In this document: positions 566 to 63,924 of the stretch, in pieces
Layout: every line of letters begins with the position of its first letter
Position numbering within the stretch: the first letter of the stretch is position 1
Origin: a virus
Direction: 5' to 3' (one strand)
IMG/VR virus record: IMGVR_UViG_3300027513_000014
Coordinates: 51 to 64,050 of that record
Length of the DNA stretch: 64,000 bases
Made by a program: the position numbers and the translations under genes
Notes under the pieces: generated by a model
Told to the model about the DNA's origin: nothing
Database searches by the model: none
The model's input: the letters and a program-made list of their open reading frames with translations, nothing else

Positions 566-576
566 TACGGTTACCG

Positions 577-1236
577 TTATCGGTAATCGCTCATATCCAC
601 GGGGACAGGCGGCACGTTCAGGCACCCTCTGAGAAGGTTGTCCTCTTTGCACATGCTCAGCCAGCCTTGCCTGATGTCTTCAGCTTTCGAGCCAAGGTGA
701 GCGTGATCCGTGAGGAACGTTATGACCCAGCTTCGAGGAAGCGCCTGGTGGTAGATAGAAGCAGGAAGCTCGCTCTCGGAGTAATACGTCGTATCACCCA
801 TAAGGCTGGTGATGGGTGTAGACTGCATCAGAAGCGGAGCCACGAGGTTGTTCATCGAGCCTGATGTGGGCATAGTCAGCACCCAATGGCCCCAGATGCG
901 CGTGCCGTTAGGCTCTGGTATCCTGCCAGCGTTTTTCTCCTGCATCAGGACAAGCGGGCGTTCTGCCTCATGCTGTATCCTATTGGCGAAGCGTATCGGG
1001 TCTACGGAGAGAGTACGCGCCGAGATTGCGATGCTATGAGTTACGATGGCTATGCCATCGGTGAGAAGCTCGCGTGTGAACTGCTCTAAGCTATTAAGCG
1101 CCTTGTCTAGATTGTAGCACGCCTCGTCAGCGCTTCGCTTAAAGTTACGCTGCTCGTCTTCTATCAAGTAGCGTTGCCGCTGCCACTCCTCTATGTCGGA
1201 GAGGGTAAGATTACGGGAAAACAGGGAAGGTTTCAT
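577..1236 (-). CDS. Hypothetical protein
   Basis: ORF track 577..1290; probable start MKPSLFSRN at 1236 after AGGGG-TTACCCAC. Confidence 0.65.
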   Translation of the reverse strand: MKPSLFSRNLTLSDIEEWQRQRYLIEDEQRNFKRSADEACYNLDKALNSLEQFTRELLTDGIAIVTHSIAISARTLSVDPIRFANRIQHEAERPLVLMQEKNAGRIPEPNGTRIWGHWVLTMPTSGSMNNLVAPLLMQSTPITSLMGDTTYYSESELPASIYHQALPRSWVITFLTDHAHLGSKAEDIRQGWLSMCKEDNLLRGCLNVPPVPVDMSDYR

Positions 1237-1311
1237 GTGGGTAACCCCTATTTGTTGGTTGTTAGGGGGTGTTACCAATAACGGTAACACCCCGGAATGA
1301 GAGCGCGAGCG

Positions 1312-2424
1312 CTAGGCTGTTAGCCCATTGATGAACGTCAGCAGCTGCGAGTTGGCCATGGCCCAGCGTGCGAACGTCGTATCGCTCATAAGCTTGTGGT
1401 CACGGTCGATAGCACGCTTGGCGAACGTGATGGACAGCTCCTTGGGCATGCGATCCACGTATCTTATCACGGATGCCGCGTCCTTTTTCTCCACCAGCTT
1501 GGCGAGGTTATAGCACACCAGCATCTGCGCATCGGTGCGCTCCGGCACCTTGACGCCTGTGGGGTTAGCCACGATGTCATGATACTTCGGCATGTCCCGG
1601 CTCAGCATCAACGTCTCGAAATACTGGGCGGCTTCGGGATGGCCCATTGTCCCCGCACAAATCTCCTGCATCCCCTCGTCCATGGGGAACTCACCAATGA
1701 TCTCGCCGTCCTCGATGGTCCCGCCACGGTAGCGTATCGTGGTTTGAAGTATGTCATCCCACGCACAGGTCGAGCGTGGCGTGCAGTAAGGACGCTGCTT
1801 ATCCGGCAGCTTGTCGCTCCAGACGAGGCCGGTATGCGCCATGGCGAACGCAATAGTCACCTTCAGGCGGTTCGTCCTTATCGCGTAGTCCTCCTCCCAT
1901 CCTTTCGGATCATCGGTCCAGTCGATATAGGTGATACGGTTGATCATATGGTCCAGCTCTTTTGTGCTGCCTGACCGGTCTTCAGCACGATTACCTGCGA
2001 ACCACACCACCCATCCGGGCGGTAGCTGATGGATGCCGAACCGGCCCACCAGAGCGCTGTCGGCAATGATCTTCTTCATATCGACATCCATCTTGTCGGC
2101 TTCCTCGATGAGTATGATCCCCCCATCGTACTCGTGGAGAAACTTCCCTTCGGCTGTCTTCCACAGGAACGGCAGGGAGAAGGTCATGATGGTTGGCTTG
2201 CCCTCCTCGTGGCGCGGCACGCCGTAACCCAGCAGGTCCATGGGGTTGGCGTTTGCACCGTTGAACCATACGAACCCGAGGTTCTTGCCGAGCAACGCGC
2301 CTATGCGCTTTGGTGCCTCGCCGATAAGAGTTGACTTGCCGCGACCGGGCGCTGACCTGATGTAGAAGGGCTTCTTGCTCTCGTACCAGATCGGCAGCCA
2401 TTCATAAATGACACTGGGCTTCAT
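1312..2424 (-). CDS. MoxR/dynein-related AAA+ ATPase
   Basis: Walker A SAPGRGKS, Walker B ILIEEAD, sensor AGNR; good RBS AGGAG. Confidence 0.85.
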   Translation of the reverse strand: MKPSVIYEWLPIWYESKKPFYIRSAPGRGKSTLIGEAPKRIGALLGKNLGFVWFNGANANPMDLLGYGVPRHEEGKPTIMTFSLPFLWKTAEGKFLHEYDGGIILIEEADKMDVDMKKIIADSALVGRFGIHQLPPGWVVWFAGNRAEDRSGSTKELDHMINRITYIDWTDDPKGWEEDYAIRTNRLKVTIAFAMAHTGLVWSDKLPDKQRPYCTPRSTCAWDDILQTTIRYRGGTIEDGEIIGEFPMDEGMQEICAGTMGHPEAAQYFETLMLSRDMPKYHDIVANPTGVKVPERTDAQMLVCYNLAKLVEKKDAASVIRYVDRMPKELSITFAKRAIDRDHKLMSDTTFARWAMANSQLLTFINGLTA

Positions 2425-2483
2425 TGTGGGTACTCCTAGTTTGGGTTTTATTACCGTTATTGGTAACTGGTTTAGTGGTTGGT

Positions 2484-2699
2484 TCAGACGTTGCGGTCTA
2501 TCCTCGCCGCATCGAGGATCGCATTGATCTCCGTATCGATGGTTTCGTTCGTACGGGGATCAGTGGCGTCGAGTGCTGCCCTGATCCGGTCAACGAGGTC
2601 GCTCGCGATCTCGTCTGGTTGCTTCAGGCGCGCTGCCAGAAACTCGATCTCGTCGCTGGCTTCTACGAGAAGCTCACGCAGGCGTCCAATGTCGGTCAT
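2484..2699 (-). CDS. Small hypothetical protein
   Basis: 71-aa ORF with upstream AGGAG. Confidence 0.6.
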   Translation of the reverse strand: MTDIGRLRELLVEASDEIEFLAARLKQPDEIASDLVDRIRAALDATDPRTNETIDTEINAILDAARIDRNV

Positions 2700-2908
2700 G
2701 GTCTTGTCTCCTACCGAGGTTAGGGGCGTTACCGGGAACGGTAACCGGGTTCAGGGTGGATTTTAGACATAGTTCTCCCCTGATACTCACATGTTACCAT
2801 AAACGGTAACCCTCTGTCAAGTTGTATTTTCATGCACGTTCTGGTTGTATAGGGATACAGCGGGTTTTATTTGGTTTTTAATGGGTTTGTTGTGTTTGGT
2901 TATAGGTG

Positions 2909-2943
2909 AAATAAAGAGCGTGTGCCGCATGCGGCACACGCTC
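2909..2943 (-). terminator. Perfect 28-bp palindrome, probable leftward terminator
   Basis: GAGCGTGTGCCGCATGCGGCACACGCTC (2916-2943) preceded by AAATAAA, giving a U-rich tail on the minus strand downstream of a small gene. Confidence 0.55.
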
Positions 2944-2961
2944 GCCGATGAGTGCGCTGAT

Positions 2962-3099
2962 TCAGCTGAAGACTGCGACACCCACGACTATACCCACGAT
3001 CACGTAGAACAGCAGAGCAACAACGAACAGCCAAGCGCAGCCGCGCATGTCGTGGGGATTGTCGTCGTTCTCATAGGGCGGGAGGTTCCAGTGGCGCAT
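2962..3099 (-). CDS. Small membrane protein (45 aa)
   Basis: Manual translation MRHWNLPPYENDDNPHDMRGCAWLFVVALLFYVIVGIVVGVAVFS; one hydrophobic helix; abuts the upstream gene. Confidence 0.55.
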   Translation of the reverse strand: MRHWNLPPYENDDNPHDMRGCAWLFVVALLFYVIVGIVVGVAVFS

Positions 3100-3101
3100 G
3101 T

Positions 3102-3593
3102 TTAATCGCTTCGATCTCTAGATGACGATATCCAGCCATTCTTTTGGTCTAGATAGCTTGTAGGATTCCCCTCTTCATCGATGTAGTTATTATCCGCGTC
3201 GAGCAAGCGATCAAGGTCATCCCGATGCCAGCCTTTAGCTTGCTCCTCTTTAAGTCGCATGTTCACCGCTATGTCCGCCCTTATAGCTGCAGCATAATCT
3301 TCAATAGGTTGTGCGGTATCGGGCTGGCTTGCAGGTTCGGTAGGTGCTGCACGCCTTGCACCATATCTCGCGTCAAAAGCTGCCTGAATCTCAGGGAACA
3401 TCTGCCCTGACGGGTCAAACAGATTGAAATAGACAGCGGCAGACACCTCGACGGTTTTGTAAGAATCCATTCGGCATTTGGGACATGCTTTAACCCGGAT
3501 GGTATTTATAGCAGTGCGGCGGGTCTGCGTTACCACCAGCTTAGCACCACAGTGTTTGCAATTTGTTAGACCTGGCTCATTGCGATCTGACAT
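3102..3593 (-). CDS. Zinc-ribbon protein (NrdR-N/Ogr-like), possible regulator
   Basis: CKHC...CPKC with TQTRR, as in NrdR-type N-terminal ribbons. Confidence 0.55.
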   Translation of the reverse strand: MSDRNEPGLTNCKHCGAKLVVTQTRRTAINTIRVKACPKCRMDSYKTVEVSAAVYFNLFDPSGQMFPEIQAAFDARYGARRAAPTEPASQPDTAQPIEDYAAAIRADIAVNMRLKEEQAKGWHRDDLDRLLDADNNYIDEEGNPTSYLDQKNGWISSSRDRSD

Positions 3594-4316
3594 CTGTTAC
3601 CTGACCTTTCTGCTCTCCACACTACAGCTTGGTCTAACATACTGAATATCAGATGTCAATACTATCACTTGAATGCTGTAATATAGCAGCTGCTGTTATT
3701 CTATGGTTTGGGGTAATGGAGTCATAAACTTAGTGAGAGAATTTAAACGCTTAATGGCTCAATGGGTTAGGGGCTTTATGATTATTCTCTAACAAAATTC
3801 TGAGAAACATAGCCATTGAGAGCAGATGTTAGATATACATATCTGTCATCTGTATACCTGTGATCTAGCAAACCGAGCCTTAGTAGTTTATATAGTAGAA
3901 AGAGAATAGAGAATATAGATATAGATAAGAAAGAAAGCCCCTAACTAGTCCCCTCCCCTAGCCTTTTAGCCCCTAAGTCCTTGTTATTGCTGTATAAATT
4001 CCTGCTCATGTAGAATTCCCCGGTAACTTTCCCCAAGAGTTACCGGGAAAAGTAACATGGATGGATTTTATTCCTATGCCCAGCTTACGGCACACCTTCG
4101 ACGTATGAGTGCGCGTTGTGCGCGCTAACCCATTGAGCGATCAGGTGTTTTAACCGCTTAGCGTTTTGATCATGTTACTTTTCCCGGTAACTTTGAGAAA
4201 TGCTAGATGTTAGATTTATGGCAAACGCACGCCGTATGAGTGCGCAGCGCGCTGCGCAAATTCATCATGTTACTTTTTCCGGTAACTTTTTGTGTAATAC
4301 TATCAAGACTTTAGGC
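3594..4316. other. AT-rich non-coding region, candidate origin or control region
   Basis: No ORF in the track; three 18-bp motif copies plus a degenerate one; duplicated CGTATGAGTGCGC; 14-bp inverted repeat at 3757-3770/4125-4138. Confidence 0.5.
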
Positions 4317-4350
4317 AAATAAAAAGGCGGAGCGCTTTCGCGCTCCGCCT
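4317..4350 (-). terminator. Rho-independent terminator
   Basis: Stem AGGCGGAGCG/CGCTCCGCCT with an A-run on the left (U-tail on minus). Confidence 0.75.
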
Positions 4351-4358
4351 GATTAACG

Positions 4359-4532
4359 TTATGGTTTCGGCAAGGTATCGACAAATACCTCGTAAGAGAC
4401 TTTGGGATTCAGGGTGACGTATACCTGCCACGGGTGCGCGCCGTTCGGGAATAGCTGGTCGTACGTCTCAGCGATAGCGCGCGCTAACGCGATACGCCTT
4501 TGCTCAGTTAGTGCCTTGATATGCTCGCTCAT
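4359..4532 (-). CDS. Small hypothetical protein (57 aa)
   Basis: Manual translation MSEHIKALTEQRRIALARAIAETYDQLFPNG...; AGGAG upstream; ends just before the terminator. Confidence 0.55.
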   Translation of the reverse strand: MSEHIKALTEQRRIALARAIAETYDQLFPNGAHPWQVYVTLNPKVSYEVFVDTLPKP

Positions 4533-4577
4533 CTTTTGGCTCCTGGGTTGTGATGGTTACTTTTTCCGGTAACAGGC

Positions 4578-4605
4578 AAAAAAGAGAGGTGGCTTGCGCC
4601 ACCTC
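4578..4605 (-). terminator. Rho-independent terminator
   Basis: GAGGTGGC-TTGC-GCCACCTC with AAAAAA to its left, downstream of 4629..5513. Confidence 0.7.
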
Positions 4606-4628
4606 CCGGTTCTCAATGTTTGGGATTG

Positions 4629-5513
4629 TTATCCCTTGCGCTGGCTGCGAGTCCTGCCAGCAACTGGTGCAGGCTTAAGCGCTGCATTCATCTGCGCTGG
4701 CGAGACGTTAAGCTTGCGTGCCAGTGCAAACAGTTCGTCCTGCTCTTCCTTGATGGTAATGGTCGCAATCCACTGCGAGAGTATCGCCGTTGCGTCGACC
4801 AGCGGCTTGTCCGTGCACTGAATATCAGCGTAAGGCTTCTTTCCCTCAGTGAGATTCTTCAGATGACGCACAACCATTTCAACAACCTTCTTAGCGCCTT
4901 TGGTATTCACCGGCTGGCGCATCGCGTCCATGATCTGATCGTCCGTCAACTCGCTCGCGGTCCATGTCTCGCGTGGGATAGCGTTATTCTTTTCATCCAC
5001 GTTGAAGACAGCCGGAAGGCGTGGGGCGCGAGGTGGGTTCTCTGTTGCCGCGTTATTGATGGTTTTCGCGGCTTCCAGATATGCTTCGAATTTTGACCTG
5101 GGCTTGTCCTTTGCCATGATCATGTTCTCAAACAACTTTACGATCAGGTCCATAGCGTTCTCGCCATTGAACAGCTTCTGACGCCCGAGATGATAGAAAG
5201 CGTTGATCTTGCCCACCTGTCCCTTTTCCGATCCCTTGGTTTTGGACGCCTTGCCACGTCCGGCCATCCAATCGCGATGTAGCACAGTTGTCTGAGTCTT
5301 GTCCGCATCAAGGTCCAGATATCCTTCGATCGCAGCGCGAACGATCTTCTGTGCCATGCTAGGAAGCGAATCAGCCGCCTTAAGGCCGGCCTTCTCCGCC
5401 TTGGCAACGTCCGCGCCAAGAGCTTTGATCTCCTTGCGAAGGTCATCAAACCGTGTGTCATTGACCAGAGCGGCCGGAGCGGTGGAAGTATTCAACGTAT
5501 CAACATTAGTCAT
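4629..5513 (-). CDS. Hypothetical protein, first gene of the leftward unit
   Basis: 294-aa ORF, helical composition, no recognised motif. Confidence 0.75.
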   Translation of the reverse strand: MTNVDTLNTSTAPAALVNDTRFDDLRKEIKALGADVAKAEKAGLKAADSLPSMAQKIVRAAIEGYLDLDADKTQTTVLHRDWMAGRGKASKTKGSEKGQVGKINAFYHLGRQKLFNGENAMDLIVKLFENMIMAKDKPRSKFEAYLEAAKTINNAATENPPRAPRLPAVFNVDEKNNAIPRETWTASELTDDQIMDAMRQPVNTKGAKKVVEMVVRHLKNLTEGKKPYADIQCTDKPLVDATAILSQWIATITIKEEQDELFALARKLNVSPAQMNAALKPAPVAGRTRSQRKG

Positions 5514-5840
5514 TGCTTTGCTCGTTTCGTTTGATCATGCCATGTCGGCAACTTCAGAGTAACACGTGATTGCCACGCGCTACAATATAGCTGCGGGGGA
5601 AAAGTTACTTTTAACGGTAACGCGGCTCGACCCCCACCCGTATTGGACTAGGGGGGCACCCGCCCGCCTAGGGTTCAGGGGATCGGCAAATATAGAATCA
5701 GTAAAAAACTCGTTATACCTTAATGATACCTCGAAGATACTAAACCTCCTCCCGACCAAACCCCAAAATCTCCTAGTCTCCCAGCGAATAAGCGAGTATA
5801 CTCCCTCCGATACCCCTCCAATAAAAGGCAACCTTCCGTC

Positions 5841-8923: not shown

Positions 8924-9133
8924 ATGAATAAAGACAGTAAAGCTGAAGTAAAGCATAAGGTCCAAGTGAGTAAAACACCGGAGATGGACCCGCCGCTCAA
9001 GCAACCTGAGCAAGCTGAGTTACCGTTACCGGTAACCCCCCAGCCAAAATTATCCGAGCGAACTAAAGCGGAAATGGAGGCGGGGCGTAAAGCAGTTAAA
9101 GAGGCTGAAGCTAAACTAAAAACTTCTGATTAG
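8924..9133 (+). CDS. Hypothetical protein
   Basis: 69-aa ORF with GGAGG RBS; contains an 18-bp motif copy. Confidence 0.55.
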   Translation: MNKDSKAEVKHKVQVSKTPEMDPPLKQPEQAELPLPVTPQPKLSERTKAEMEAGRKAVKEAEAKLKTSD

Positions 9134-9226
9134 TATGTAACCTACGAACAGCCAGAACGCCGTGCCAAAAGTGAGCATGAGAACCCAGATCAGTAGCTCG
9201 GGGGGCTCTTTCATTAGGAGGTGATG

Positions 9227-9376
9227 ATGCCACTAAAGAAAGGCAAAAGCCAGAAGGATGTGTCCGAGAACATTCGCGAGCTTAGGCACAGTGGAAAACC
9301 CGCTAAGCAAGCTGTGGCCATTGCGCTTCAAAAAGCGGGTAAGTCTCGTAAAGGCAAAAAGCCGAGAAGTTATTAG
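9227..9376 (+). CDS. Small basic phage protein
   Basis: Manual translation [49 protein letters not shown]; AGGAGG RBS; resembles short proteins often seen near phage terminase genes. Confidence 0.7.
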
Positions 9377-9452
9377 TGATCCGCTGGCACCGCACGTTTG
9401 CGTTTGCCCTGGGGGTCGCGGGCGTTATGTTTCTGCTGTTATGGGCGTGGAG

Positions 9453-10898
9453 TTAGGTCCACCCGGCAGCGCTCATAGGGGGCTGCGGCTTGGGGTTCTG
9501 CATGTGGCGCATCACCATGCCCATCATTCCGTGACTACCCGCGTGCGTGGTCAGGCACACATATTGCAGTGCATCTGCCACATGCGAGTATTCGTTCTTG
9601 TCGGGGCTGGGCTTGCGCTGGCCCTGTTTTGTCTTCCCGTATCTGTAGCCGCCGCCCATGGCGCGTACAAGTGTCGGGCAGCGCCCCTTGTCGAAGACTA
9701 TCGCTGGGCCTCCATCTCTTTGGCTAAGCAGAAGCGCCTCGACTGCCCTGATCCGTGGGTCGATATCATTAGTGGGTGCAGGGAAACAGGCAAAACCAAA
9801 ACGCTTCAGCACGTCAAAGGAGTTCTCCTCGTAGATGCTATCCTTGCTCTTGCCTGCCGGGTCGCCCACTAGCGCTATCTTCTTGCCCATGTAGCGAAAA
9901 TCACCCATTCGGGGGCGCAGGCTTCTTTGTATGTGAAGCTCTAGCCCGGTGTCTTCCGCTGGGACTTCTTCCAGGATTAGCAACCTGCCTTTATGGTCCA
10001 TCTGGCAGATCACCGACCACGGATCGCGCCCAAAGTCTTGTCCCACCAGGATAGGATGCCCTTGCACAGGTTCGAGATTTTCAACGCAATGGAACGCCGA
10101 CTTGAAACTATCGTGGAAGACGGCTGTTCCTGAGGGATCGTCTCCAAATTCTGCGTGGACATATCGTTTGCACCACGATTCGCTGTTGGATCGGATGAAT
10201 CGTTCATAGTAGGTTCGTCCTTGTGCCAGTCTGCGGGGGTCATTTTCGGGTAACTTAAGAGTTTCCGGCGTCTGGTGTAGCCATTGAAGGTTTTCAGCAT
10301 CTGGGCTCATACCCCCTGGTTGGCGGAAAATCTGCGTGTCAGGCCCTGGAGTGGTCATGATCTCGTACCAGGGGGAGTTTTCACTGGGTAGGTTAGTATC
10401 AGCTACCCAGCCAAACCACGTTGCGCCGCCCATCTGTGCCGACGGGAATCTCCCGCAGCGGCCCGAGATAGGTGAGATCAAATCCGGGTCGACTTCGATA
10501 GCTTCCGAAATCCACGCGCCGGTGAGCTGCATGGAGAGGAGCCGTCTCTGATCCTCAGCATCTTCCAGCGGGATGAAAATCCACTCACTGTTTATGTCAC
10601 CTACCTTGATATAGAGAGTGCTGGTGGACACCTTCCACTCTGCTATCTCTCTGAACCACGCAATAGTATCCTTAAGAATAGTGTCCCGCATTTGTTGAAG
10701 AGTATTTCTAACTATAGCGAACCTTGTGTAACGTATACCATCGGGTGCAGGTTGTTGTTCTGCTGCGCGCCTGAATAGCTCAAATATTATAGCAGTAGTC
10801 TTGCCGGACCCTACTGGTCCGGCGATGATCCGCCCGAACGCATTGCTGCGCATAAACTGCTTACATGTGGGAGGCGGCGTATAGTCGATTTGGGTCAT
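9453..10898 (-). CDS. terL: Terminase large subunit
   Basis: Walker A GPVGSGKTT, Walker B AWISE, nuclease motifs VGQDFG and SHVADALQY. Confidence 0.92.
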   Translation of the reverse strand: MTQIDYTPPPTCKQFMRSNAFGRIIAGPVGSGKTTAIIFELFRRAAEQQPAPDGIRYTRFAIVRNTLQQMRDTILKDTIAWFREIAEWKVSTSTLYIKVGDINSEWIFIPLEDAEDQRRLLSMQLTGAWISEAIEVDPDLISPISGRCGRFPSAQMGGATWFGWVADTNLPSENSPWYEIMTTPGPDTQIFRQPGGMSPDAENLQWLHQTPETLKLPENDPRRLAQGRTYYERFIRSNSESWCKRYVHAEFGDDPSGTAVFHDSFKSAFHCVENLEPVQGHPILVGQDFGRDPWSVICQMDHKGRLLILEEVPAEDTGLELHIQRSLRPRMGDFRYMGKKIALVGDPAGKSKDSIYEENSFDVLKRFGFACFPAPTNDIDPRIRAVEALLLSQRDGGPAIVFDKGRCPTLVRAMGGGYRYGKTKQGQRKPSPDKNEYSHVADALQYVCLTTHAGSHGMMGMVMRHMQNPKPQPPMSAAGWT

Positions 10899-11347
10899 GT
10901 GGTGTGCTCGATTACCTTTTCCGGTAATAACACTTCCTTTGAGAATGACAGGGGGGCCGAGCCGCCGAGGTTAATTGTAACGTGGAACCCACTGCCCGCG
11001 CTAGTTACCGACTCGGGTTTGTTTATTCCGGATATGTTGGAAACCAGCTTGGCAAGCTCGACCTTGGAGTTGAGCGTTTCGTTGGGATCGTGTAGTCTTG
11101 TGTTCGCCTCGGGAAGCCAGTGCTCGACAATGGCTCCAGCCTTGAGCCTTGTACGCTCAGTGGTGTTCTGGGCGCTTTGCCATGCAATGATTTCGTTTTC
11201 AAGAAGCGCTTGAAACCGTTTGGAGTGCTGGATGATGCGCCATTCATCCTCGCTGAGTTTATAAATTTCCTGGATGGCTTCGGCATCCAGGTGATCAATG
11301 GCGATTTCACGCGCTAGCTGAACAAGCGTGTTGTCTCGAAGCTGCAT
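10895..11347 (-). CDS. Probable terminase small subunit
   Basis: Overlaps the terL start by 4 nt; typical size and helical content. Confidence 0.6.
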   Translation of the reverse strand: MQLRDNTLVQLAREIAIDHLDAEAIQEIYKLSEDEWRIIQHSKRFQALLENEIIAWQSAQNTTERTRLKAGAIVEHWLPEANTRLHDPNETLNSKVELAKLVSNISGINKPESVTSAGSGFHVTINLGGSAPLSFSKEVLLPEKVIEHTT

Positions 11348-15573: not shown

Positions 15574-15643
15574 ACTTCTCCGGGCGATCAGTTACCGTTT
15601 CCGGTAACTTCAACTCCCCGGGGGTAACTCTTCGGGGATTAAG

Positions 15644-16660: not shown

Positions 16661-16750
16661 GCTTTCTTCTCTGTGGTGCATCCCCCAGCCTTTAATCCTC
16701 CCTGGAGGCTGGGGGCTGTTACCGGAAACGGTAACTCCTAGAGGTTCGGC

Positions 16751-20330: not shown

Positions 20331-20374
20331 TATATGTTACTTTTTCCGGTAACAATTTAGGAGGCTGGTTACCC

Positions 20375-23476: not shown

Positions 23477-23495
23477 CCTAAAGGTAACTTAAGCT

Positions 23496-42538: not shown

Positions 42539-42559
42539 CCTTTAAAGGTAACAATTCCG

Positions 42560-49668: not shown

Positions 49669-49712
49669 GGGAACAGCCTTTATTCATGTGGGTAACGGGT
49701 ATATGGCTTAAG

Positions 49713-50792
49713 CTAATCTGGCAAAAGCTTAGCCACCATTGCATCCAGCTCCTGCTCAAAATTCGAAAATGCTTCGCCGTTAGGTTTTGGGCTTGCTTCC
49801 GGGGAAGCCGTTAACCCAGAAGGCGGGGTTGGTGCCGTATTGGCAGTTGTCGCAGTACCAGCGGACTCTGGCATCGTTGCCATAGGAGACGAGGGGGATG
49901 CCGTAACGCGGGCTGCCTGTAGAATCGTGGGTTTTGTATTTGGTTCCACAGGTGGGGCAGATGATACTTGCTGCGATATTGAGGTTGGTTTCGTCCATGT
50001 GGTGTCCTTTTCGAAATGTTGCGTCCTTTCGAATACACCGCTAGGAGTTTCCTGCGCTTCAGCCACGAACTCGATATTTTCCGAAAGGATACGTCGCACC
50101 ACCGTGTCCGAATCGCGCATCGCTACAACCTGCGCCGCCTCTTCATCGGAAAGTGGCCGGATGGCAGTAAACTCGAACTTGGGATAGGATTCGCTGATAG
50201 CGAATGAGATTCTTGTCCCGAATGAATAATACGGGTAACCCATCCTGTTCATCTTGTTGCCAAAGTGCGCAAGCTCCTGCAGGCTTGCAGCAGGAACTCT
50301 TAGAAGCATTGGCCCGCCGTATACTTCATTGGCGATATCGTCCAGAGGCACGATGGCTAGGCGCTTGTTGTCCTGGCATTCTTTCTTCGCCTTGCCGGTA
50401 ACCGGCGAGATGACAGCTCCCCATACATTGCGCGGGCATGCGGCACATGTAGGACTTTGTATGTTCTTGGCAGAGGCTTCCGGCGTCACGCCATTATTGC
50501 TGAAGCAATCAGGCGCTGCGTTAGCGCCCTCTGTGTAGCCCGAAGCATAGTAGATTTTGGAGACGTTGCGGCTTGCCCCGACAACGATGCATTCTATGCT
50601 GTTTACAGGCCCTTCGTTATTAGGGCGAAGAAGTTGTTTCTCCTCTCCGCGATACTTGATGCTCCAGACTTTGCCACGGTATCCGACAATGCCGAACGAG
50701 GAGGCAATGCCAGAGGACAGATCGTTTTGCGACGACTGGCTCTGGAAAATCTTGGAGATTTGGCTGCTGTTGAACGTAGTGAGGTTACTCAT
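49713..50792 (-). CDS. Conserved phage replication-module protein (ssDNA-binding candidate)
   Basis: PDCFS..G..P...CAACPRN.WG...KECQDNKRLA pattern with low-complexity tail; probable start MSNLTTF. Confidence 0.55.
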   Translation of the reverse strand: MSNLTTFNSSQISKIFQSQSSQNDLSSGIASSFGIVGYRGKVWSIKYRGEEKQLLRPNNEGPVNSIECIVVGASRNVSKIYYASGYTEGANAAPDCFSNNGVTPEASAKNIQSPTCAACPRNVWGAVISPVTGKAKKECQDNKRLAIVPLDDIANEVYGGPMLLRVPAASLQELAHFGNKMNRMGYPYYSFGTRISFAISESYPKFEFTAIRPLSDEEAAQVVAMRDSDTVVRRILSENIEFVAEAQETPSGVFERTQHFEKDTTWTKPTSISQQVSSAPPVEPNTKPTILQAARVTASPSSPMATMPESAGTATTANTAPTPPSGLTASPEASPKPNGEAFSNFEQELDAMVAKLLPD

Positions 50793-50876
50793 GACATTTG
50801 ACCCTTTCTCTCTTTTTGGATGGGGTGGGAAACACGTCATTATACCTTCATTAAGTTACCAGAAGGTATCTATTTT

Positions 50877-58469: not shown

Positions 58470-60335
58470 TTACTTCGCCTCCCCATAGTTGTCCCCCACG
58501 CCCACCTCAGCCATGAGCGGTAAGCCTGCACCCCACTCAGGTCTGCGTGTCATCTCCTCCATCAGGATCGCTTTAACCTCTTCAACATGCCGCACATGTA
58601 TGACGTAGCCGTTCTCGTCATGCGCCTGCTGAGCAAGGTGATACCCAAGCGGCATAATTCTTTTCTGTATGCGTGCCGCAGCGTCAAATACCAGTATCCT
58701 GTCCAGATACTGCACGATGTTCTCAAGTAGCTTCCCTCCATAGAGGCGCTTGGGTTTACCGGAAAAGGTAAACTCCCATTGGCCATCTTTGTATTGCAAA
58801 TTATGGTAATACATTCTGAGCCTGCCAGGGACATGCACCATGCCCTTCTCGATGACTACGGGACCCACCTGCATGACGTTTCCACCGTTGGCAATGATAG
58901 GTATCGCCAGAGTATTTAGCTTGGCCCATAGAGCCGGTATCTGGTAGTAAACATTACGGTAGGTATACACTATCTGTGCAGCTATTGCGTCATCCAGCTC
59001 GATGCCCTTGCCCAGCTGGTTCTTGGACATGATCCTGAGCTGCCGCTGGAACTTCATCCAACCCAGCCCGAACCCTAGCCCGAGAATCGCGGTCTTCCCG
59101 CAGAATCTGGCATCAGGATGAACTTTTTTGTTAATCTTTTTATTAAAAACAATGGACGCAAAGTTTGAATATACATCGTCTCCATTCTCAAACTGGTTAA
59201 GCAAGCTAGTCTGATCCGCAAGGAACGCCACCAGTCTCGCCTCGATCTGCGAGCTATCCACCACCATCACTTTATGATCGGGTGGTGCAGTCAAGGATTT
59301 CCTTAGCTCGCCTCCCCGCGTCATGTTTTGCACGTTTAGCTGCCAGTCCCCCGAGCCACGATGTGTATGAGCACCGGAGAACCGCACAGGCATTGGCATG
59401 TTACCTTTAACGGTAACCGGCCATTGAAGGTTGGAGATATTTATGAATCGCTGCGCGCGGGTTTCCTCTATGGTGCTTTTCGCGCCAAGTCTCGCAGCCA
59501 CCAGAGCCTGCACAATGGGATTAGGATGCTCCTCAAGCTCCAGGAACGCCTGATCTGTTTTGGCGAACGCATATAGCTCCAGCCCTGTAGTGGGTGAAAT
59601 TTTTTTAGGCGGGTCCACGCCCTGAGTGCGCAGCATGTCGGCAAACACCTCGTTTTGCCGCACAGTCTGGGCGTCTGCCCCGATAGCGCTCAGTGCCACA
59701 GACTTCGCCACCAGCACGTTATTCCGGTGCAAGGCTAGCCGGGTCTGGTCCAGCCGGAAAACCGGCTCCACGGTCATCCTGAGGATCATGTCGAGGATGG
59801 GTATCTCGCACATGGGGAACGCGCCTGATACTACCAGCGTCTTGAATATCCCCGCGCAAAGCGACACATCGTTAAGCGCGTATTCCACATAAGCGTTGTA
59901 GAGGCCCGATGCCTTGATCATCGGCAGGTCCATGCCGCGCACGCCAATGAGTGCGCTACTGTCCTTCACGCCAAGCTGCAAGTGCCGTGCTACTGCGCTC
60001 AAAGATAAGCTCGTAAGCGCATAGCGTATGGTCGCCTGCGCCACAGAAAGTGTGCAACAGAGTATCTTTGGAACAAAATTATATCGCCACGAGAGGATAC
60101 TTGCGTCGAATAGCGCGTTATGGCTAATGGTCATGAGGTCGCTGGGATCGTATCTCTTGAGATGCGAGTCTAGTTTATCGCCATCTACCCAATAGGGGGT
60201 GTTAGAGAGTCCCTCTTGGAAGGCACAGCCGTTGACCCGGAACCGGGGAGATAGTATATACTCTGCCGGGGACAGAAACTTCAGCGAGAAGTCGTCGCTG
60301 TAGTACGTCTCGAAATCGAGGAACAGAAGCTTCAT
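58470..60335 (-). CDS. polA: Family A DNA polymerase with 3'-5' exonuclease
   Basis: ExoI LDFETY; motif A DSSQIEARL; motif B RFCGKTAILGLGFG; motif C AHDE; probable start MKLLFLDFE at 60335. Confidence 0.93.
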   Translation of the reverse strand: MKLLFLDFETYYSDDFSLKFLSPAEYILSPRFRVNGCAFQEGLSNTPYWVDGDKLDSHLKRYDPSDLMTISHNALFDASILSWRYNFVPKILCCTLSVAQATIRYALTSLSLSAVARHLQLGVKDSSALIGVRGMDLPMIKASGLYNAYVEYALNDVSLCAGIFKTLVVSGAFPMCEIPILDMILRMTVEPVFRLDQTRLALHRNNVLVAKSVALSAIGADAQTVRQNEVFADMLRTQGVDPPKKISPTTGLELYAFAKTDQAFLELEEHPNPIVQALVAARLGAKSTIEETRAQRFINISNLQWPVTVKGNMPMPVRFSGAHTHRGSGDWQLNVQNMTRGGELRKSLTAPPDHKVMVVDSSQIEARLVAFLADQTSLLNQFENGDDVYSNFASIVFNKKINKKVHPDARFCGKTAILGLGFGLGWMKFQRQLRIMSKNQLGKGIELDDAIAAQIVYTYRNVYYQIPALWAKLNTLAIPIIANGGNVMQVGPVVIEKGMVHVPGRLRMYYHNLQYKDGQWEFTFSGKPKRLYGGKLLENIVQYLDRILVFDAAARIQKRIMPLGYHLAQQAHDENGYVIHVRHVEEVKAILMEEMTRRPEWGAGLPLMAEVGVGDNYGEAK

Positions 60336-60385
60336 GTTACTTTTTCCGGTAACTGCAGCGCAGGTGCTGCTATAGGAGAAATACA

Positions 60386-60598
60386 ATGGCATGGTATAAA
60401 AACAAACAGCGTGACGTTCGTCCGGCAACCCCGGAAGACGAGGGGTACGATCCGGCACTGAGCCAAGTGTTCATCAAGATGGACGATGGCACAGAGGAAC
60501 TGGTAGACGCCACGCTGCTTGGCACGGGCGATCTCCCCCCAACCCCACCGGCTGCACAAACAAGTCATGCTCGGAAGCCCGCTAACGAGCGCACTTGA
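60386..60598 (+). CDS. Lone rightward small ORF inside the leftward block
   Basis: AGGAG RBS and ATG at 60386; competes with antisense ORF 60332..60706. Confidence 0.45.
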   Translation: MAWYKNKQRDVRPATPEDEGYDPALSQVFIKMDDGTEELVDATLLGTGDLPPTPPAAQTSHARKPANERT

Positions 60599-60706
60599 CA
60601 TGGTATAAATACGATGATACATGCCCACTGACGCTTCTCTCGTGGGTGGGAACGTCATATTGCGAGCGGGGGTTGAGAGTAAGTCTCCCTCCGCTCGCTT
60701 TTTCAT

Positions 60707-61111
60707 TTAGTCTTCTAACTTGGCCAAGCCACTACGCGCTAAGCCAGCGACCATCTTCTGTGCAGCTGGACCGGGATCGTCAATATCACGCATCCCATGC
60801 TCACGCGCTTCGGCACCCGAACTGAACACCGGCACTTCAGTTTTATAATCAAACGTGCTGGAGTGAACAACGCCGGGAAAACGAAGCGCGAGCGTGTGCT
60901 CGGTGCCGTGGCACGCGAGCCATCCTCCACACAGGTGTCCGTCGCGCTGGTGACACATGAACACCTTGCGGTCCTGCTCCCACGTCTCGCCATCGTAGAG
61001 CGGCAACTTGTCATACTCGTTCTGACTCCAGATGCCGGAAGGCACGTCGCGGCGGTAGGGGCACGAGCCGCACGGCGTCGGGGGCGGCTTGGGCAGGTTA
61101 GTCTCCGCCAT
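60707..61111 (-). CDS. Cys-rich protein (DUF6283-like)
   Basis: PCGSCPYRRDVPSGIW...FMCHQ.DG.LC.GW..CHG. Confidence 0.7.
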   Translation of the reverse strand: MAETNLPKPPPTPCGSCPYRRDVPSGIWSQNEYDKLPLYDGETWEQDRKVFMCHQRDGHLCGGWLACHGTEHTLALRFPGVVHSSTFDYKTEVPVFSSGAEAREHGMRDIDDPGPAAQKMVAGLARSGLAKLED

Positions 61112-61343
61112 TGTCCCCTCCATCTTCCACTTCCGCAATCAACGCCTCCTTGACCAGCGCTACAGATATACTCAGGTTGGGCCACTCAACGATGACACTG
61201 GCCTGATCGTTCTCTTCGTACTCCGTGAACTCGCCGTACCAGTAACCGCTGTCCGGCATCAAATCATCTGGCACACAGCTCATGCTCTCTATGTCATTGA
61301 TCAACGTCAGCACTGCTTCCCTTAGTTTACCCATCTGAACCAT
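61098..61343 (-). CDS. Small acidic hypothetical protein
   Basis: GGGAG RBS; 81 aa. Confidence 0.55.
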   Translation of the reverse strand: MVQMGKLREAVLTLINDIESMSCVPDDLMPDSGYWYGEFTEYEENDQASVIVEWPNLSISVALVKEALIAEVEDGGDNGGD

Positions 61344-61547
61344 CTCCCTTAAGTTACCGTTTTCGGTAATTCACAGCTTGCGAGGTTTTCACCGGCTGAA
61401 CGACCTCTGTCCCTTTAGGACAACTGAAAGGAAAGAACCGGAACCTCGCCTTGTATTGCCTTGGTTACCATGGACGTTATGACCTATCCATAGGCCGCAC
61501 AATCGCCCGTTGCTGCTAGCGGCTGCGGGGGAGCTTCACCTTTCCTC

Positions 61548-61823
61548 TCAGGTGTTGGCGTTGGTGTTGACTCTGATCGGCACACTGACGGTGACCTGGT
61601 GAGCCAGTACCTCGTAAGTCTCGTTAGTGTGTGAGAAATACCGGGCAATCCGCGCACGGATTGCCTTAGGCTTCTGCAGGCTTGAGACGATCTCGCTGTC
61701 CCACCACTCGGAGACGTACTGGTCCAGAGTGGTGTAGGCTTCACGCTTGGTGCCCGCCAGATAGGTGTCGTGGCCATGTTTATGCGTAACGGTCACGACC
61801 CAGATGGGGATGGTTGCTTTCAC
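61548..61823 (-). CDS. Hypothetical protein
   Basis: 91 aa, GAGG RBS, coupled to the upstream gene. Confidence 0.6.
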   Translation of the reverse strand: MKATIPIWVVTVTHKHGHDTYLAGTKREAYTTLDQYVSEWWDSEIVSSLQKPKAIRARIARYFSHTNETYEVLAHQVTVSVPIRVNTNANT

Positions 61824-62065
61824 TTTGGTTCATTCCTCTTAAATATAGGACGCTCTCCACTGGCTATCCTCTCCCTGTCTCTCTGGTCTATGGCCGCCGA
61901 TTCTATCTCATTCTCTATCCTCTTCCCCCTGTCCACGGCATAGAGGTACCCAAACACAACGCCGATAAGCGCCCCAACAAACGCGTAGCCTTCCAGGTTG
62001 ATCAAACCTCCAATTGCTGCGCCTACACCGCACCATAAGGCGGCGATGAATATACGATCAACCAT
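61820..62065 (-). CDS. Small membrane protein
   Basis: Probable start MVDRIFIAALWCG with two hydrophobic helices; GGAGG RBS. Confidence 0.55.
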   Translation of the reverse strand: MVDRIFIAALWCGVGAAIGGLINLEGYAFVGALIGVVFGYLYAVDRGKRIENEIESAAIDQRDRERIASGERPIFKRNEPK

Positions 62066-62465
62066 GTTGTCCTCCATCAAGCGCTTCGACACCAGCAGAC
62101 ACCATGATCTTGTTGAACCACTCCCACTGCTTCGGAGAGAACTTAACAGTGTCATACTGTGAAGCACGAGCAAACGTCTGCGCCACGAACGTCTGCGCGT
62201 TGGGCGTGATACGCGCGTTGGACTTGAGGATAGCTTCTGCAGCAGCCTTGACCCATTGGCTTGAGACATCGGCTCTGTCGTTCTGCCACGAATAGTCGTT
62301 GGATTTGCTCGGGGCGTTGCCGTTGTTGGCAGCAAGCGTCTGGCCGTTACCGTTACCGGTAACAGGCGTGCAATGCTGGATCAACTCGATCCATGTGAAC
62401 CCATGGGAAGTGAGTGCGCTGTCTACTGCAGTCAGCACTTCATTGCTCAATGGACGACTCGTCAT
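62058..62465 (-). CDS. Hypothetical protein
   Basis: 135 aa; AGGAG RBS. Confidence 0.65.
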   Translation of the reverse strand: MTSRPLSNEVLTAVDSALTSHGFTWIELIQHCTPVTGNGNGQTLAANNGNAPSKSNDYSWQNDRADVSSQWVKAAAEAILKSNARITPNAQTFVAQTFARASQYDTVKFSPKQWEWFNKIMVSAGVEALDGGQHG

Positions 62466-62532
62466 GTGGGTAACTCCTTTTCTATCTGGTTATGAGCGAG
62501 TTACCGTTTCCGGTAACTCGCTCAGGTTTATG

Positions 62533-63924
62533 CTAGTAGCGTGCGCCCTTCGGCTTCTGCTTGGGGACCATCACCACCTCGCCCCAGGGATACTGGTTTG
62601 GTTTCTTGACGGTGCTACCCCAGATCACAGGATAGTTTGGGGTATACCCCGGGAACCTACCGTCACCATCGGTGAGATAAATCAAGCAATCCGGCTCCAC
62701 CTGATTGTCCCTTATCCAATCAAACACCGGCACGAAGCTAGTGCCTCCACCTCCTCTTACACCACGGCGTCGTATGGTGTTCAGATCATCAGGTGATTCA
62801 CACACGTCCACGTCATGCACGTGGTAGTCACACCACACGATGATCACCTTGCGCGGCTTCATATCCGTAAGCACGCCGGATACTTCAGCGAGGAACATAT
62901 CACGCTCATTGATCACGGACCCAGAGGTGTCGCCGCCTATCACGATGGTGCCTGTGCCATGCCCAGAGCGGGACGGCGCATAGATGTCCCTTGTGATAAG
63001 TCTTCTGTCCGGTACCCTCCACTCCCAGCGATCGCTTCCGATCTTGCGCGCCATGACTGCGCGAAGCTTGTCCGTCCAGTCCACCTTGGGCGTCAGAAGC
63101 TCTTTGAATAGAAGTGCTGAGCCGCCTGCACCCTTGCCTGCCTGCGTGTCCAACTCCATTGCGGCAGCTAGCTCTCTGGCCCACTTCGTCTCGCTGCGCT
63201 CGGCTATCGCAGTGGTCGGGTTCTTGCCTTGTGCCTCACCCGGCTTCAGATGCTGGTCAAAACTGCCCTCTGGGGAGTTACCGTTAACGGTAACCTTGTC
63301 AGGTTTGTCAGATTCTCCCTGATTTTGCCCCTGGTCTGGTCCATTTGGCCCATCAGGACACGGCTGACCGGGCTGGCCCGGGGGTTTGGGCATGTTACCC
63401 TGCTGGCTCGCCTGATATATTATCCTGTAAGCCTCCGTGACCGAGTGCTTCTGCGTCACCAGATGCGGCCAGTGATACCAGTCCTTATGTAGTTTTCCGA
63501 TCTTGCTCGATACGAGCATGTCGTTGACCACCAAGTCCAGAGCGACCTGTGCGATCTTGATGTCGAACGGGAGTTTGGTGCCATCAGCACAGAGCACATA
63601 CCCTGCCTGCCTCCACCTGTGAAGCAATGCGGTATGGTCCAGCACGCAGTGAAGTATCTCGTGGCCACATGCGAACACCCGGTTCATCAGGTCATACTGG
63701 AAGAATGTATCCGGGTTGGCGAGCATGACGAACCCATCGGTTGCTGCAATGGGCACGTCACGCGTGAAATACGCAACCTTCTTGTCGTTTTCCGGGTTCA
63801 TCATCGTCATGAACAGATGTGTGAACCCCGGCGCGTGAAACACAAGCGCTGTGCGAGTCTCACGCCATTGGCGTGTTTGCACTTTATCCAGTTCCGCTGG
63901 CTTGTATTTGCTCTGGTCGATCAT
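62533..63924 (-). CDS. HExxH metallopeptidase-like plus VWA domain protein (DUF2201-type)
   Basis: IAATDG, GHEILH, MIDAS DTSGS, GGGGTSF, YLTDG; probable start MIDQSKY at 63924. Confidence 0.85.
   Translation of the reverse strand: MIDQSKYKPAELDKVQTRQWRETRTALVFHAPGFTHLFMTMMNPENDKKVAYFTRDVPIAATDGFVMLANPDTFFQYDLMNRVFACGHEILHCVLDHTALLHRWRQAGYVLCADGTKLPFDIKIAQVALDLVVNDMLVSSKIGKLHKDWYHWPHLVTQKHSVTEAYRIIYQASQQGNMPKPPGQPGQPCPDGPNGPDQGQNQGESDKPDKVTVNGNSPEGSFDQHLKPGEAQGKNPTTAIAERSETKWARELAAAMELDTQAGKGAGGSALLFKELLTPKVDWTDKLRAVMARKIGSDRWEWRVPDRRLITRDIYAPSRSGHGTGTIVIGGDTSGSVINERDMFLAEVSGVLTDMKPRKVIIVWCDYHVHDVDVCESPDDLNTIRRRGVRGGGGTSFVPVFDWIRDNQVEPDCLIYLTDGDGRFPGYTPNYPVIWGSTVKKPNQYPWGEVVMVPKQKPKGARY

Follow-up and report, generated by a model that had tools for sequence, protein, structure and literature searches.

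We found that a mirror-symmetric dyad of 18 bp is repeated through the genome of this phage at a mean density of approximately one per 1.5 kb. The best overall explanation, to which we give a probability of about 0.45, is that the dyads are read by a winged-helix protein and act as dispersed operators or roadblocks.

An 18-bp dyad repeated far beyond chance

An earlier note on this DNA had listed 29 exact GTTAC-N8-GTAAC sites and about 11 near matches, approximately 40 in total. We recovered all 29 at their listed positions in the window (the whole 64-kb stretch of DNA that was analyzed), against a mean of 0.02 and a maximum of 1 in 100 dinucleotide shuffles. Allowing at most one mismatch gave 37 sites (0.9 expected), and the core pattern TTACY-N5/6-RGTAA gave 41 in the window and one past its end, or approximately 42 copies, in keeping with the earlier total. 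Among the eight one-mismatch matches, those at 26321 and 42535 disrupt the core and may be chance occurrences. The 18-mer GTTACTTTTTCCGGTAAC, previously reported as repeated identically, was indeed present at 4269, 4556, 20336, 25498, 28492, 46796 and 60336, with its reverse complement at 34928. The enrichment also withstood the codon-preserving shuffles that the note had proposed as a challenge to it: 23 sites lie in genes, compared with a mean of 1.5 and a maximum of 4 in 100 synonymous-codon shuffles, and two relatives gave 34 versus 3.0 and 38 versus 2.0.

Sites at gene junctions and within genes

The sites are distributed as follows.

570..5621: ten dyads spread over the left early block (minus strand) and the divergent intergenic region, starting at 570, 1271, 2450, 2728, 2793, 4039, 4174, 4269, 4556 and 5604
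9019..10928: two sites, one at 9019 within a small plus-strand ORF and one at 10911
15591..16735: two sites bracketing the major capsid gene, 15591 before it and 16718 after it
20336..32061: four sites at gene junctions of the structural operon (20336, 25498, 28492 and 32044)
33425..36388: four sites inside the gene for a 2471-aa virion protein (33425, 34928, 35652 and 36371)
39497..42552: three sites, at a junction (39497), in a gene near its 3′ end (42425) and at 42535
46412..63294: seventeen sites in the minus-strand replication block, starting at 46412, 46796, 49058, 49522, 50934, 52789, 53793, 55817, 57194, 57673, 58755, 59400, 60336, 61353, 62346, 62500 and 63277

The claim that sites occur in early, replication and structural modules alike holds, as they span the whole genome and every module, and all six junction positions that had been placed upstream of key genes were confirmed. 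Sites 15591, 20336 and 32044 precede the capsid gene (15644), a collagen-repeat gene (20375) and the 2471-aa gene (32079), respectively; site 25498 has a Shine-Dalgarno sequence on its 5′ side and an ATG (25521) 5 nt to its 3′ side; site 60336 adjoins the PolA ATG (60335); and site 52789 adjoins a TIGR-like array. Elsewhere, site 10911 lies inside the end of the TerS-like gene, 13 nt ahead of the large terminase start, site 16718 lies downstream of the terminator-like hairpin of the capsid gene, and site 42535, with one core mismatch, falls on a stop/start junction. The three strong sites in the 2471-aa gene (33425, 34928 and 36371) all encode L-P-x-x-V-T. Within genes, the sites originated through amino-acid substitutions in variable loops rather than through insertion of 18 bp, and one site in a PolA loop is common to this phage and RHph_TM27A.

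Taken together, the early and replication blocks on the minus strand have about one site per 0.85 kb, versus one per 2.9 kb in the plus-strand block (5841–46105). Sites are 3–4-fold enriched within 30 nt of gene boundaries, where 38% of them lie, and only 20–38% are found at most 40 nt upstream of a start codon. Site 2793 overlaps a sigma-70-like promoter and site 5604 lies just downstream of another; promoters would not fit at the tight-junction sites. The boundary enrichment, the approximately 3-fold early and replication density, and the promoter-associated sites 2793 and 5604 count for a transcriptional role. On the other hand, about 40% of sites lie deep in genes with no bias to gene ends (33% are more than 100 nt inside), and site-to-site spacing is slightly more even than random, with few gaps below 200 bp, so that a genome-wide DNA role fits at least as well as gene regulation. 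We consider a transcriptional effect of the sites possible, with the odds somewhat against it.

A related account, which we likewise regard as somewhat doubtful, retains protein-binding dyads and gives them a non-transcriptional role, a different reader or both: they would be dispersed loading or priming sites for the C-terminal domain of the DUF927 primase-helicase, or sites for a protein that compacts, organizes or shields the replicating chromosome. The approximately 40% of sites deep in genes and the slight over-dispersion speak for it, as does the constant location of the short-form gene of our candidate reader (see below) in the replication module. The sites of the early region form the densest cluster, four of them falling within 600 bp in the non-coding stretch 3594–4350. 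A site cluster adjoining the most AT-rich non-coding stretch also speaks for this account, but the association of AT-rich windows with sites was not above that expected from site density.

Concerted retuning of the half-site in related phages

A search of related phages, which the note had called for, revealed that the array is clade-wide: more than 15 metagenomic relatives carry it, as does the cultured Rhizobium phage RHph_TM27A. Across array lineages TTAC/GTAA is invariant, save in one where TTAC has become TAAC in both arms. The two to three bases after TTAC are lineage-specific, and each genome has altered them jointly at all of its sites, orthologous ones included. These inner bases are CCG in this phage, CTA in its nearest relatives (at the orthologous capsid-flanking sites), and CCT, CCC, CTC, CTG, CGG or CAG in other lineages. 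The closest relatives, L013, L003 and L020, retain both capsid-flanking positions, with the inner arm changed from CG to TA. Spacings of 5 and 6 bp are both present within single genomes.

The companion search of candidate hosts showed no enrichment of the word: 201 Rhizobiales genomes contained zero to six exact sites each, fewer than the reversed control. These counts bear on whether a host protein, such as a global regulator or nucleoid protein of an alphaproteobacterial host, reads the sites, which the phage would accumulate to recruit or titrate it. The half-site does resemble the GTAAA/TTTAC pentamers that we take to be those of OmpR/CpxR-type regulators, but the low host counts and the different half-site tuning of closely related phages make a host reader highly unlikely. 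Because tuning differs between close phages at orthologous sites, a co-evolving phage protein is an easier explanation than host regulators, and the reader is probably phage-encoded.

It is barely credible that the array is a selfish or defense-related by-product, whether a REP/RAYT-like mobile palindrome or the target of a bipartite restriction-modification or nicking enzyme. Such an origin would suit an identical 18-mer at eight places and a bipartite, symmetric site, as some type IIB enzymes recognize. Yet in-gene sites arose by substitution rather than insertion, orthologous positions are kept and retuned, and no HUH or RAYT-like gene was found in our scans; moreover, restriction targets are normally avoided rather than enriched, and the spacing here is variable.

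Probable duplex dyads rather than hairpins

Across six genomes, the half-sites vary independently at every variable position, and complementary pairs are not in excess. In five genomes, the sense strand showed no preference for G.U over C.A (34 versus 37). Of 12 occurrences of the asymmetric T5 variant, 10 lie on the plus strand, irrespective of gene strand. Judged from these sequence comparisons, the words behave as two independently constrained half-sites, which fits a symmetric dimer on duplex DNA. Since the arms vary independently, with neither compensatory pairing nor a G.U bias, the pattern points to such a dimer and not to a hairpin, and the 18-bp words are likely to be protein-binding dyads.

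We regard as very improbable the contrary reading, in which the palindromes act as RNA or single-stranded DNA hairpins in mRNA processing or stability, translational coupling, N4-type promoters or primosome assembly. Many sites in this phage could form 7-bp arms with a 4-nt loop (median RNA MFE approximately −6 kcal/mol), and at 25498 a hairpin would juxtapose the Shine-Dalgarno sequence and the ATG. A loop length that differs by one within genomes and a weak match between the giant virion protein and the N-terminal region of the N4 virion RNA polymerase also count in its favor. However, the arms lack covariation, the frequency of non-complementary pairs is that expected of independent half-sites, compensated T-A pairs are seldom seen, and G.U is not preferred on the sense strand. 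Conservation is of the stem sequence, not merely of pairing; the hairpins of many sites would be weak, 31 of 57 sites in genome G002 being weaker than −3 kcal/mol on one strand; and the giant protein yielded no polymerase domain.

A winged-helix protein as candidate reader

Two phage proteins come into question as readers of the dyads.

57999..58325, minus strand: candidate reader, a 108-aa winged-helix protein encoded between the PolA and PD-(D/E)XK exonuclease genes
46786..47268, minus strand: rival reader, the last ~160 aa (C-terminal domain) of a DUF927 primase-helicase

We tentatively name the first, an uncharacterized OmpR/MarR-like protein, at slightly less than even odds. Its AF2 model (pLDDT 83) is a winged helix, with three helices and a beta-hairpin wing, accompanied by flanking helices; the N- and C-terminal helices are long, and the recognition helix resembles the OmpR/PhoB type. 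The nearest Foldseek matches were MarR-family dimers and OmpR-family DNA-binding domains, among them those of SaeR, ArlR and NsrR (rmsd ~2 Å over 65–73 residues) and many MarR-family chains, with probabilities near 1 but E values of at least 7e-3. Pfam Trans_reg_C matched at E = 3.3e-4 (21.1 bits, under the cut-off of 26.2; two of five members match), and a profile search against PDB sequences reached only AdeR at a non-significant E of 0.57.

A homolog is encoded in every complete array-bearing genome. Homologs were found in TM27A, G002, G003, G005, L162, L163, L165, L172–L174 and L176–L179, and long-form homologs in G210–G213; the typical motifs MVDV-x3-LRKKL and GYR are present in long-form relatives. 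In all genomes having the short form, its gene lies within the replication module. Nearly all genomes with a homolog show a clear site excess, the exceptions being L173 with 5 relaxed sites and L174 with 3, neither of which has a de novo dyad peak, and none of six genomes without the protein (G004, phiM6, CRP-1, HTVC033P, CHOED and Aeromonas 1233) has an array. This co-occurrence is confounded by shared ancestry, the independent protein-less lineages numbering only one or two. Three complete genomes (G214, G215 and G217) encode a long-form homolog and are arrayless; thus, the winged-helix protein is at most necessary, not sufficient.

The preferred spacing tracks the subfamily of the winged-helix protein. 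The long form goes with N7 alone in three of four genomes (G213 has 12 N7 and 6 N8), subfamily B leans toward N7 (5:5 in L162), and subfamily A is mostly N8 in G000 and TM27A and approximately even in G005, L163 and L165. A rigid dimer would poorly tolerate 5- and 6-bp spacings coexisting in one genome.

As for the primase-helicase, its C-terminal domain is conserved in all relatives and has a weakly winged-helix-like fold. Its conservation in all array-bearing genomes and its greatest divergence in array-less G004 would befit a reader. Against this, the tail is also present in arrayless G004, G214, G215 and G217, its model matches DNA-binding folds weakly (E of at least 0.19), and isolated GGTAAC hexamers occur at chance level in the phage, where no dense iteron block was found. 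P4 alpha-type iteron origins, which are read by a primase-helicase C-terminal domain, are comparable in that the DUF927 primase-helicase of this phage likewise ends in a conserved domain. Their iterons, however, are packed into a single block beside the gene, whereas the dyads of this phage are scattered and show no enrichment of isolated hexamers. The TerS-like protein was excluded as reader because it is present in array-less G004.

Comparison with known systems

The closest analog is the dyad array of Cluster O mycobacteriophages (Corndog and its relatives), in which the 17-bp dyad TGTTCGG-N3-CCGAACA, with 7-bp inverted arms and a short center that is often an A/T run, is present in more than 30 copies per genome (PMC4351075). 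Those dyads occur genome-wide, are denser in the non-structural arm, are in many cases intergenic with about one-third in genes, and have no orientation relative to transcription, in a phage that is not evidently temperate; the authors predicted a dimeric DNA-binding protein and left the function unexplained (PMC4351075). For comparison with at least 30 inverted repeats of 17–18 bp with near-invariant arms, this phage has 29 exact copies and 41 by the core pattern, and it shares the mixture of intergenic and in-gene sites, the denser non-structural part and the lack of an orientation rule. The two differ in word and host phylum, and the phages are unrelated; the A2 profile of the candidate reader matched nothing in Corndog at E up to 1. 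Given the different word and the absence of a reader homolog in Corndog, the resemblance is functional or convergent only.

In Cluster A stoperators (L5 gp71, Bxb1 gp69), dozens of copies of one short site are dispersed, often in short intergenic gaps, and are proposed to block elongating RNA polymerase. The likeness to our array lies in those dozens of dispersed copies. Stoperators are asymmetric 13–14-mers that point along the direction of transcription, and their reader is the immunity repressor of a temperate phage (PMC4351075), whereas here the site is symmetric and follows no orientation rule, as both the T5 variant (plus strand in 10 of 12) and the wobble counts (34 sense, 37 antisense) indicate. 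Pfam and PHROG scans of about 55 ORFs found no integrase, CI/Cro-type repressor or ParAB. A strict stoperator, the analogy drawn in the earlier note, is rejected on these grounds: a dyad, an asymmetric variant that ignores gene direction, and neither integrase nor repressor in the scans. Its proposal of a dimeric protein is supported by the independently constrained half-sites and the genome-wide spread; membership of the stoperator class, with its asymmetric, oriented site, is not supported. Its comparison with parS, matS and SlmA/Noc sites likewise found no backing in the scans, which contained no ParB/MatP/Noc/SlmA-type domain, or in the 201 Rhizobiales genomes. With no ParB found and a word that is not one of the host chromosome, these analogies are only loose.

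MarR-type operators are typically 16–20-bp dyads with 5–7-bp half-sites, and the model of the candidate reader matches the MarR family and OmpR-PhoB effector domains best. Winged-helix regulators differ in normally having a handful of operators, against ~40 here, and direct repeats are the usual targets of OmpR-type domains. In Cluster K mycobacteriophages, start-associated sequences are similar as short repeated motifs beside many start codons, but they are asymmetric and tightly tied to translation starts (PMC4351075), whereas only a minority of the sites here are start-proximal.

Proposed function

In the explanation that we favor, each subunit of a phage-encoded symmetric dimer would read one half-site, which in this phage is (G)TTAC(C/T)G, with the half-sites 5 or 6 bp apart on duplex DNA. 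The sites would have increased in number until there was about one every 1.5 kb; half of them are at gene junctions and the others in tolerant parts of proteins, a placement that suggests a protein marking the whole chromosome. The reader would be made together with the replication genes, and bound dimers may serve as the dispersed operators or roadblocks, damping initiation and read-through by host RNA polymerase, mainly in the dense early and replication blocks. The outcome would be a lytic-phage counterpart of stoperators.

A bolder proposal, which we hold to be unlikely, is that array and winged-helix protein together make up a chromosome-marking system not described before in phages, in which the protein labels or organizes the entire replicating chromosome and serves replication, compaction or self/non-self discrimination, not single promoters. 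Starting from an ordinary regulator with few operators, as seen in G217, some lineages would have come to carry 40–60 operators per genome, with protein and word co-evolving, the switch from TTAC to TAAC included. Dispersed dyad arrays were already known from a few phages and had never been explained; what is new here is that an array has been followed across many diverged lineages, with its half-site retuned in concert and a candidate reader named. If the chromosome-marking proposal is true, this system and the unexplained Cluster O arrays would be convergent counterparts.

A dyad array spans the phage genome

Twenty-nine exact copies of the 18-bp palindrome GTTAC-N8-GTAAC lie in the window, compared with 0.02 in dinucleotide shuffles, and 37 copies are found when up to one mismatch is allowed (0.9 expected). 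The invariant core, TTACY-N5/6-RGTAA, defines 41 sites in the window and one more past its end. Every site coordinate in the earlier note was correct, including those of eight copies of one identical 18-mer. That note had held that a similar frequency in codon-preserving shuffles would speak against the array; the array stands, because synonymous-codon shuffles that left all proteins and intergenic DNA intact retained 1.5 in-gene sites (maximum 4) compared with the 23 observed, and two relatives gave the same outcome. The array is real and strongly non-random. Matches to the exact 18-mer in IMG/VR were confined to two unrelated contigs, and a scan of genome contigs for GTTACCG-N4-CGGTAAC returned, among the matches listed, only single chance ones.

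The phage genome is 64,487 bp long with overlapping contig ends, and the window covers nearly all of it. Its main features are as follows.

Main features of the genome (window coordinates)
1-5513 and 46214-64000, minus strand: leftward genes, comprising small early genes and the replication module
Within the leftward blocks, minus strand: replication module, with a MoxR-like ATPase, DUF2201, family A polymerase, PD-(D/E)XK exonuclease, SNF2 helicase and DUF927 primase-helicase
5841-46105, plus strand: rightward genes, with lysis genes, SU10-like portal, capsid, collagen-repeat fibre and a 2471-aa ejection protein with a DarB-like end
9453-11347, inverted within the rightward block: terminase genes
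57999-58325, minus strand: candidate reader of the sites, 108 aa, matching Pfam Trans_reg_C at E 3.3e-4, below cut-off

No RNA polymerase, integrase, repressor pair or ParB was found in this genome; for integrases, repressors and ParAB, the Pfam and PHROG scans covered about 55 ORFs. The closest cultured relatives are the RHph_TM27A group of Rhizobium phages (portal identity 66%), and megablast of 20 kb against cultured phages gave no match. The 2471-aa virion protein (32079-39494) carries an InPase domain, and its C-terminal region is similar to antirestriction proteins of the DarB type; its match to N4 virion RNA polymerases, with the N-terminal part of that family, is weak. This virion protein is probably a polyvalent one that is ejected and lacks polymerase activity.

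Sites are enriched at gene junctions and in early and replication genes

Across six genomes, 38-54% of sites lie within 30 nt of a gene boundary, compared with 10-15% at random, and only 20-38% lie within 40 nt upstream of a start codon. About 40% are more than 100 nt inside genes, where gene ends are not favored. In this phage and in the cultured Rhizobium phage RHph_TM27A (TM27A), the early and replication blocks have ~3 times the site density of the structural block. Distances between neighboring sites range from random to slightly even, and very short ones are few. Within genes, the word is translated as V-T-x-x-G-N or L-P-x-x-V-T, whereas its third reading frame would introduce a stop codon, and alignments with orthologues showed that in-gene sites arose by substitution in variable loops and not by 18-bp insertion; one site in a polymerase loop is common to this phage and TM27A.

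Two further associations were rejected. Eight of 24 terminator-like hairpins have a site within 60 nt, which is not above the junction base rate, and sites are associated with the most AT-rich window no more than site density predicts. A separate perfect 44-bp palindrome at 8324-8367, centered on TATA and followed by a T-run on the minus strand, was recovered as a 20-pair stem in the terminator scan, with dyad sites absent nearby.

The arms of the site vary independently

At every variable position tested (the outer base, the Y/R position and the first and second inner bases), agreement between the arms matched the expectation for independently varying halves in 6/6 genomes. Compensated T-A pairs between arms were rare. 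A site that combines a T arm with a C arm would pair as G.U on one of its strands and as C.A on its complement; the sense strand had the G.U form 34 times and the C.A form 37 times. Predicted hairpins were modest, and in the relative G002 over half were weaker than -3 kcal/mol on one strand. Taken together, the independent variation, the lack of G.U bias and the modest hairpins argue that pairing between arms is not selected and that each arm is fitted separately to the consensus. RNA elements, cruciform signals and N4-type hairpin promoters are disfavored on the same grounds, the last also being dropped because no RNA polymerase domain was detected in the giant virion protein. Unselected pairing in turn argues for the dyad as a putative site of a symmetric dimer on double-stranded DNA. 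The coexistence of 5- and 6-bp spacers in single genomes is awkward for such a dimer, which would therefore have to be flexible.

The array is clade-wide and retuned in concert

The array is a property of the whole clade. Core-pattern sites number 46 in TM27A, 57 in G002, 27 in G001 and 16-18 in G005, compared with ~0.5 per genome by chance; three further metagenome contigs each carry 10 per 20 kb, and the relatives G209 to G213 carry 9 to 48 sites of a looser TTAC-N7/8-GTAA pattern. TTAC and GTAA are constant across these lineages, and the next two or three bases are lineage-specific.

Bases following TTAC in each lineage
CCG: this phage and G210
CTA: closest relatives
CCT: TM27A and G001
CCC: G002, G005 and G209
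CTC: L162
CTG: G211
CGG: G212
CAG: G213

In G003, all 13 sites have TAAC/GTTA in both arms and none is of the standard kind. Two capsid-flanking sites are orthologous in this phage and in contigs L013, L003 and L020, and in these three contigs they carry TA instead of CG in both arms. Lineage-specific inner bases and retuned orthologous sites together indicate that all sites of one genome are retuned together, which is what a co-evolving, sequence-specific reader would predict. The dimeric protein proposed in the earlier note gains support from this concerted retuning and from the independent variation of the arms.

One capsid-flanking dyad site is separated from the capsid start by a further conserved element at 15609-15643, a small C/G-run hairpin around GGTAACTCT; it recurs in L013 (7936-7965), L003 and L020 and is retained even where the dyad arms differ.

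In 201 genomes drawn from the order of one Rhizobiales genome, the exact word occurred 0-6 times per genome, more rarely than a reversed control. The word is not a host chromosome word, and a small host regulon using it is still conceivable.

An excess of CCGG-N5-CCGG in G210-G217 (contigs L202-L229; 13-48 copies) was rejected as a dyad site. It derives from 9-nt periodic Gly-X-Y collagen-like coding, a trap for palindrome scans.

A winged-helix protein is the candidate reader

An AlphaFold2 model of the 57999-58325 protein, built from a homologue alignment (pLDDT 83), has a winged-helix core of three helices with a beta-hairpin wing, flanked by a long helix at the N-terminus and another helix at the C-terminus. 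The nearest Foldseek matches were MarR-family dimers and OmpR-family DNA-binding domains (rmsd ~2 A over 65-73 residues, weak E-values), and PHROGs held no family for it. The 612 cluster representatives retrieved by a full HMMER search are all small proteins. Searches of cultured phages by tblastn, of IMG/VR and of a word-indexed protein set yielded either nothing or a single close relative.

Profile searches placed homologues in TM27A, G002, G003 and G005, in each case with the polymerase and exonuclease genes on either side. The TM27A homologue is EVB29_062. Three metagenome contigs picked solely for encoding the protein all had arrays. The L172 protein is 67% identical with an identical recognition helix, and its contig has the same CCG-type sites. 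In G210-G213, the domain lies within a ~200-aa protein with an added N-terminal helix-turn-helix; Jackhmmer connected this long form to the short one, and the preferred site spacing tracks the protein subfamily. G004, which is 98% complete and shares the whole replication module, has neither a homologue by profile nor an array, and five more distant portal relatives likewise lack both. Against the reader count G214, G215 and G217, complete genomes that encode the long form with 0, 0 and 5 sites. Among the genomes examined, the array never occurs without the protein, and the protein sometimes occurs without the array, a pattern that fits the multiplication, in some lineages, of the operators of an ordinary regulator. 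The co-occurrence is partly explained by shared ancestry.

Other readers were also considered. The C-terminal domain of the DUF927 primase-helicase stays as a rival: it is conserved in all genomes and most divergent in array-less G004, but its structural model gave weak matches to DNA-binding folds. A TerS-like protein (phrog_36773) was excluded by its presence in G004, and an RNA-guided reader was dropped because the spacers of the TIGR-like arrays do not match the site.

These arrays, at 51588-51805 and 52643-52787 on the minus strand, consist of 36-37-nt units (AGCCA, 8-9 nt, GAGAGWACCA, 8-9 nt, GAGCG; ten units by pattern), and none of their spacers resembles the 18-bp site. They flank a 264-aa gene (51805-52599; PHROG 4285 'transposase', E 5e-49; weak Pfam IS110-type Transposase_20), an arrangement that fits a TIGR-Tas-like system.

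Two observations concern the niche of the candidate reader. In most cases the polymerase gene and the short-form gene that follows it are separated by ~200-340 nt of non-coding DNA (about 9660-10000 in L162, L163 and L165; 58326-58470 in the window, with two CAGTAAA repeats 16 nt apart), which may serve as promoter or control region of the short-form gene. Sister lineage G004 (L035-L038), which lacks both the array and the winged-helix protein, has seven CACAC-NN-GTGTG palindromes at 20254-30686, in the early and replication region only (chance ~0.06), which may represent another regulator-operator pair in the same niche.

Possible roles of the array

Under the single most likely model, the winged-helix protein would read the sites as dispersed operators or roadblocks; the transcriptional part of this model is tentative, with a probability of roughly 0.3. 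A transcriptional role is favored by the junction enrichment, by the regulator-like fold of the candidate reader and by the greater site density in the early and replication blocks. Two sites near promoters point the same way: one covers the spacer and -10 of a good sigma-70-like promoter (2791-2820), and another lies 11-28 nt downstream of a promoter-like element (5559-5586). Nearly equal weight falls on a chromosome-wide, non-transcriptional role in replication, compaction or protection, as promoters would not fit into the tight junctions, many sites are far inside genes, and sites tend to be spaced apart rather than clustered.

Two loci have distinctive layouts. At 3594-4350, 750 bp of non-coding DNA follow two strong minus-strand terminators and hold three dyad sites. 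The same stretch includes the 120-bp segment with the highest AT content in the genome, at about 3830-3950, and a pair of direct repeats of ~95 nt, both of which begin with a dyad site followed by ATGAT and contain GCGCACTCATACG; this region could be an origin or an early promoter/small-RNA region. At 25485-25523, the Shine-Dalgarno sequence AAGGAGG lies 5' of a dyad site and the sole possible start codon 5 nt 3' of it, a distance of 26 nt unless the site folds in the mRNA. A similar layout is that of T4 genes 25 and 38, whose ribosome-binding sites are split.

Relation to known arrays

The nearest published case is the dispersed 17-bp dyad array of Cluster O mycobacteriophages, described in 2015, with >30 copies, 7-bp arms and an A/T-run center (PMC4351075). 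It is denser in the non-structural arm, has one-third of its sites in genes and follows no orientation rule; the phages are not evidently temperate, and its authors predicted a dimeric binder, the array being reported without a reader or function (PMC4351075). The candidate reader has no homologue in the Cluster O phage Corndog, and the two arrays are therefore alike by convergence. The stoperator label offered in the earlier note does not carry over, as two defining features, asymmetry with orientation and an immunity repressor, were not found here, and its comparison with parS, matS, Noc or SlmA sites fails because the proteins that define those systems were not found in this phage.

The array is a variant of a known but unexplained kind of element, for which there is now a candidate reader and a cultured model phage. 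The array can be traced through the whole clade, including the cultured, tractable pair RHph_TM27A and Rhizobium phaseoli, and its proposed small-protein reader comes with natural specificity variants, which differ in inner bases, in spacing or by a core swap. Confirmation of the protein would turn these co-evolving protein-word pairs into a compact natural data set for changes in winged-helix specificity.
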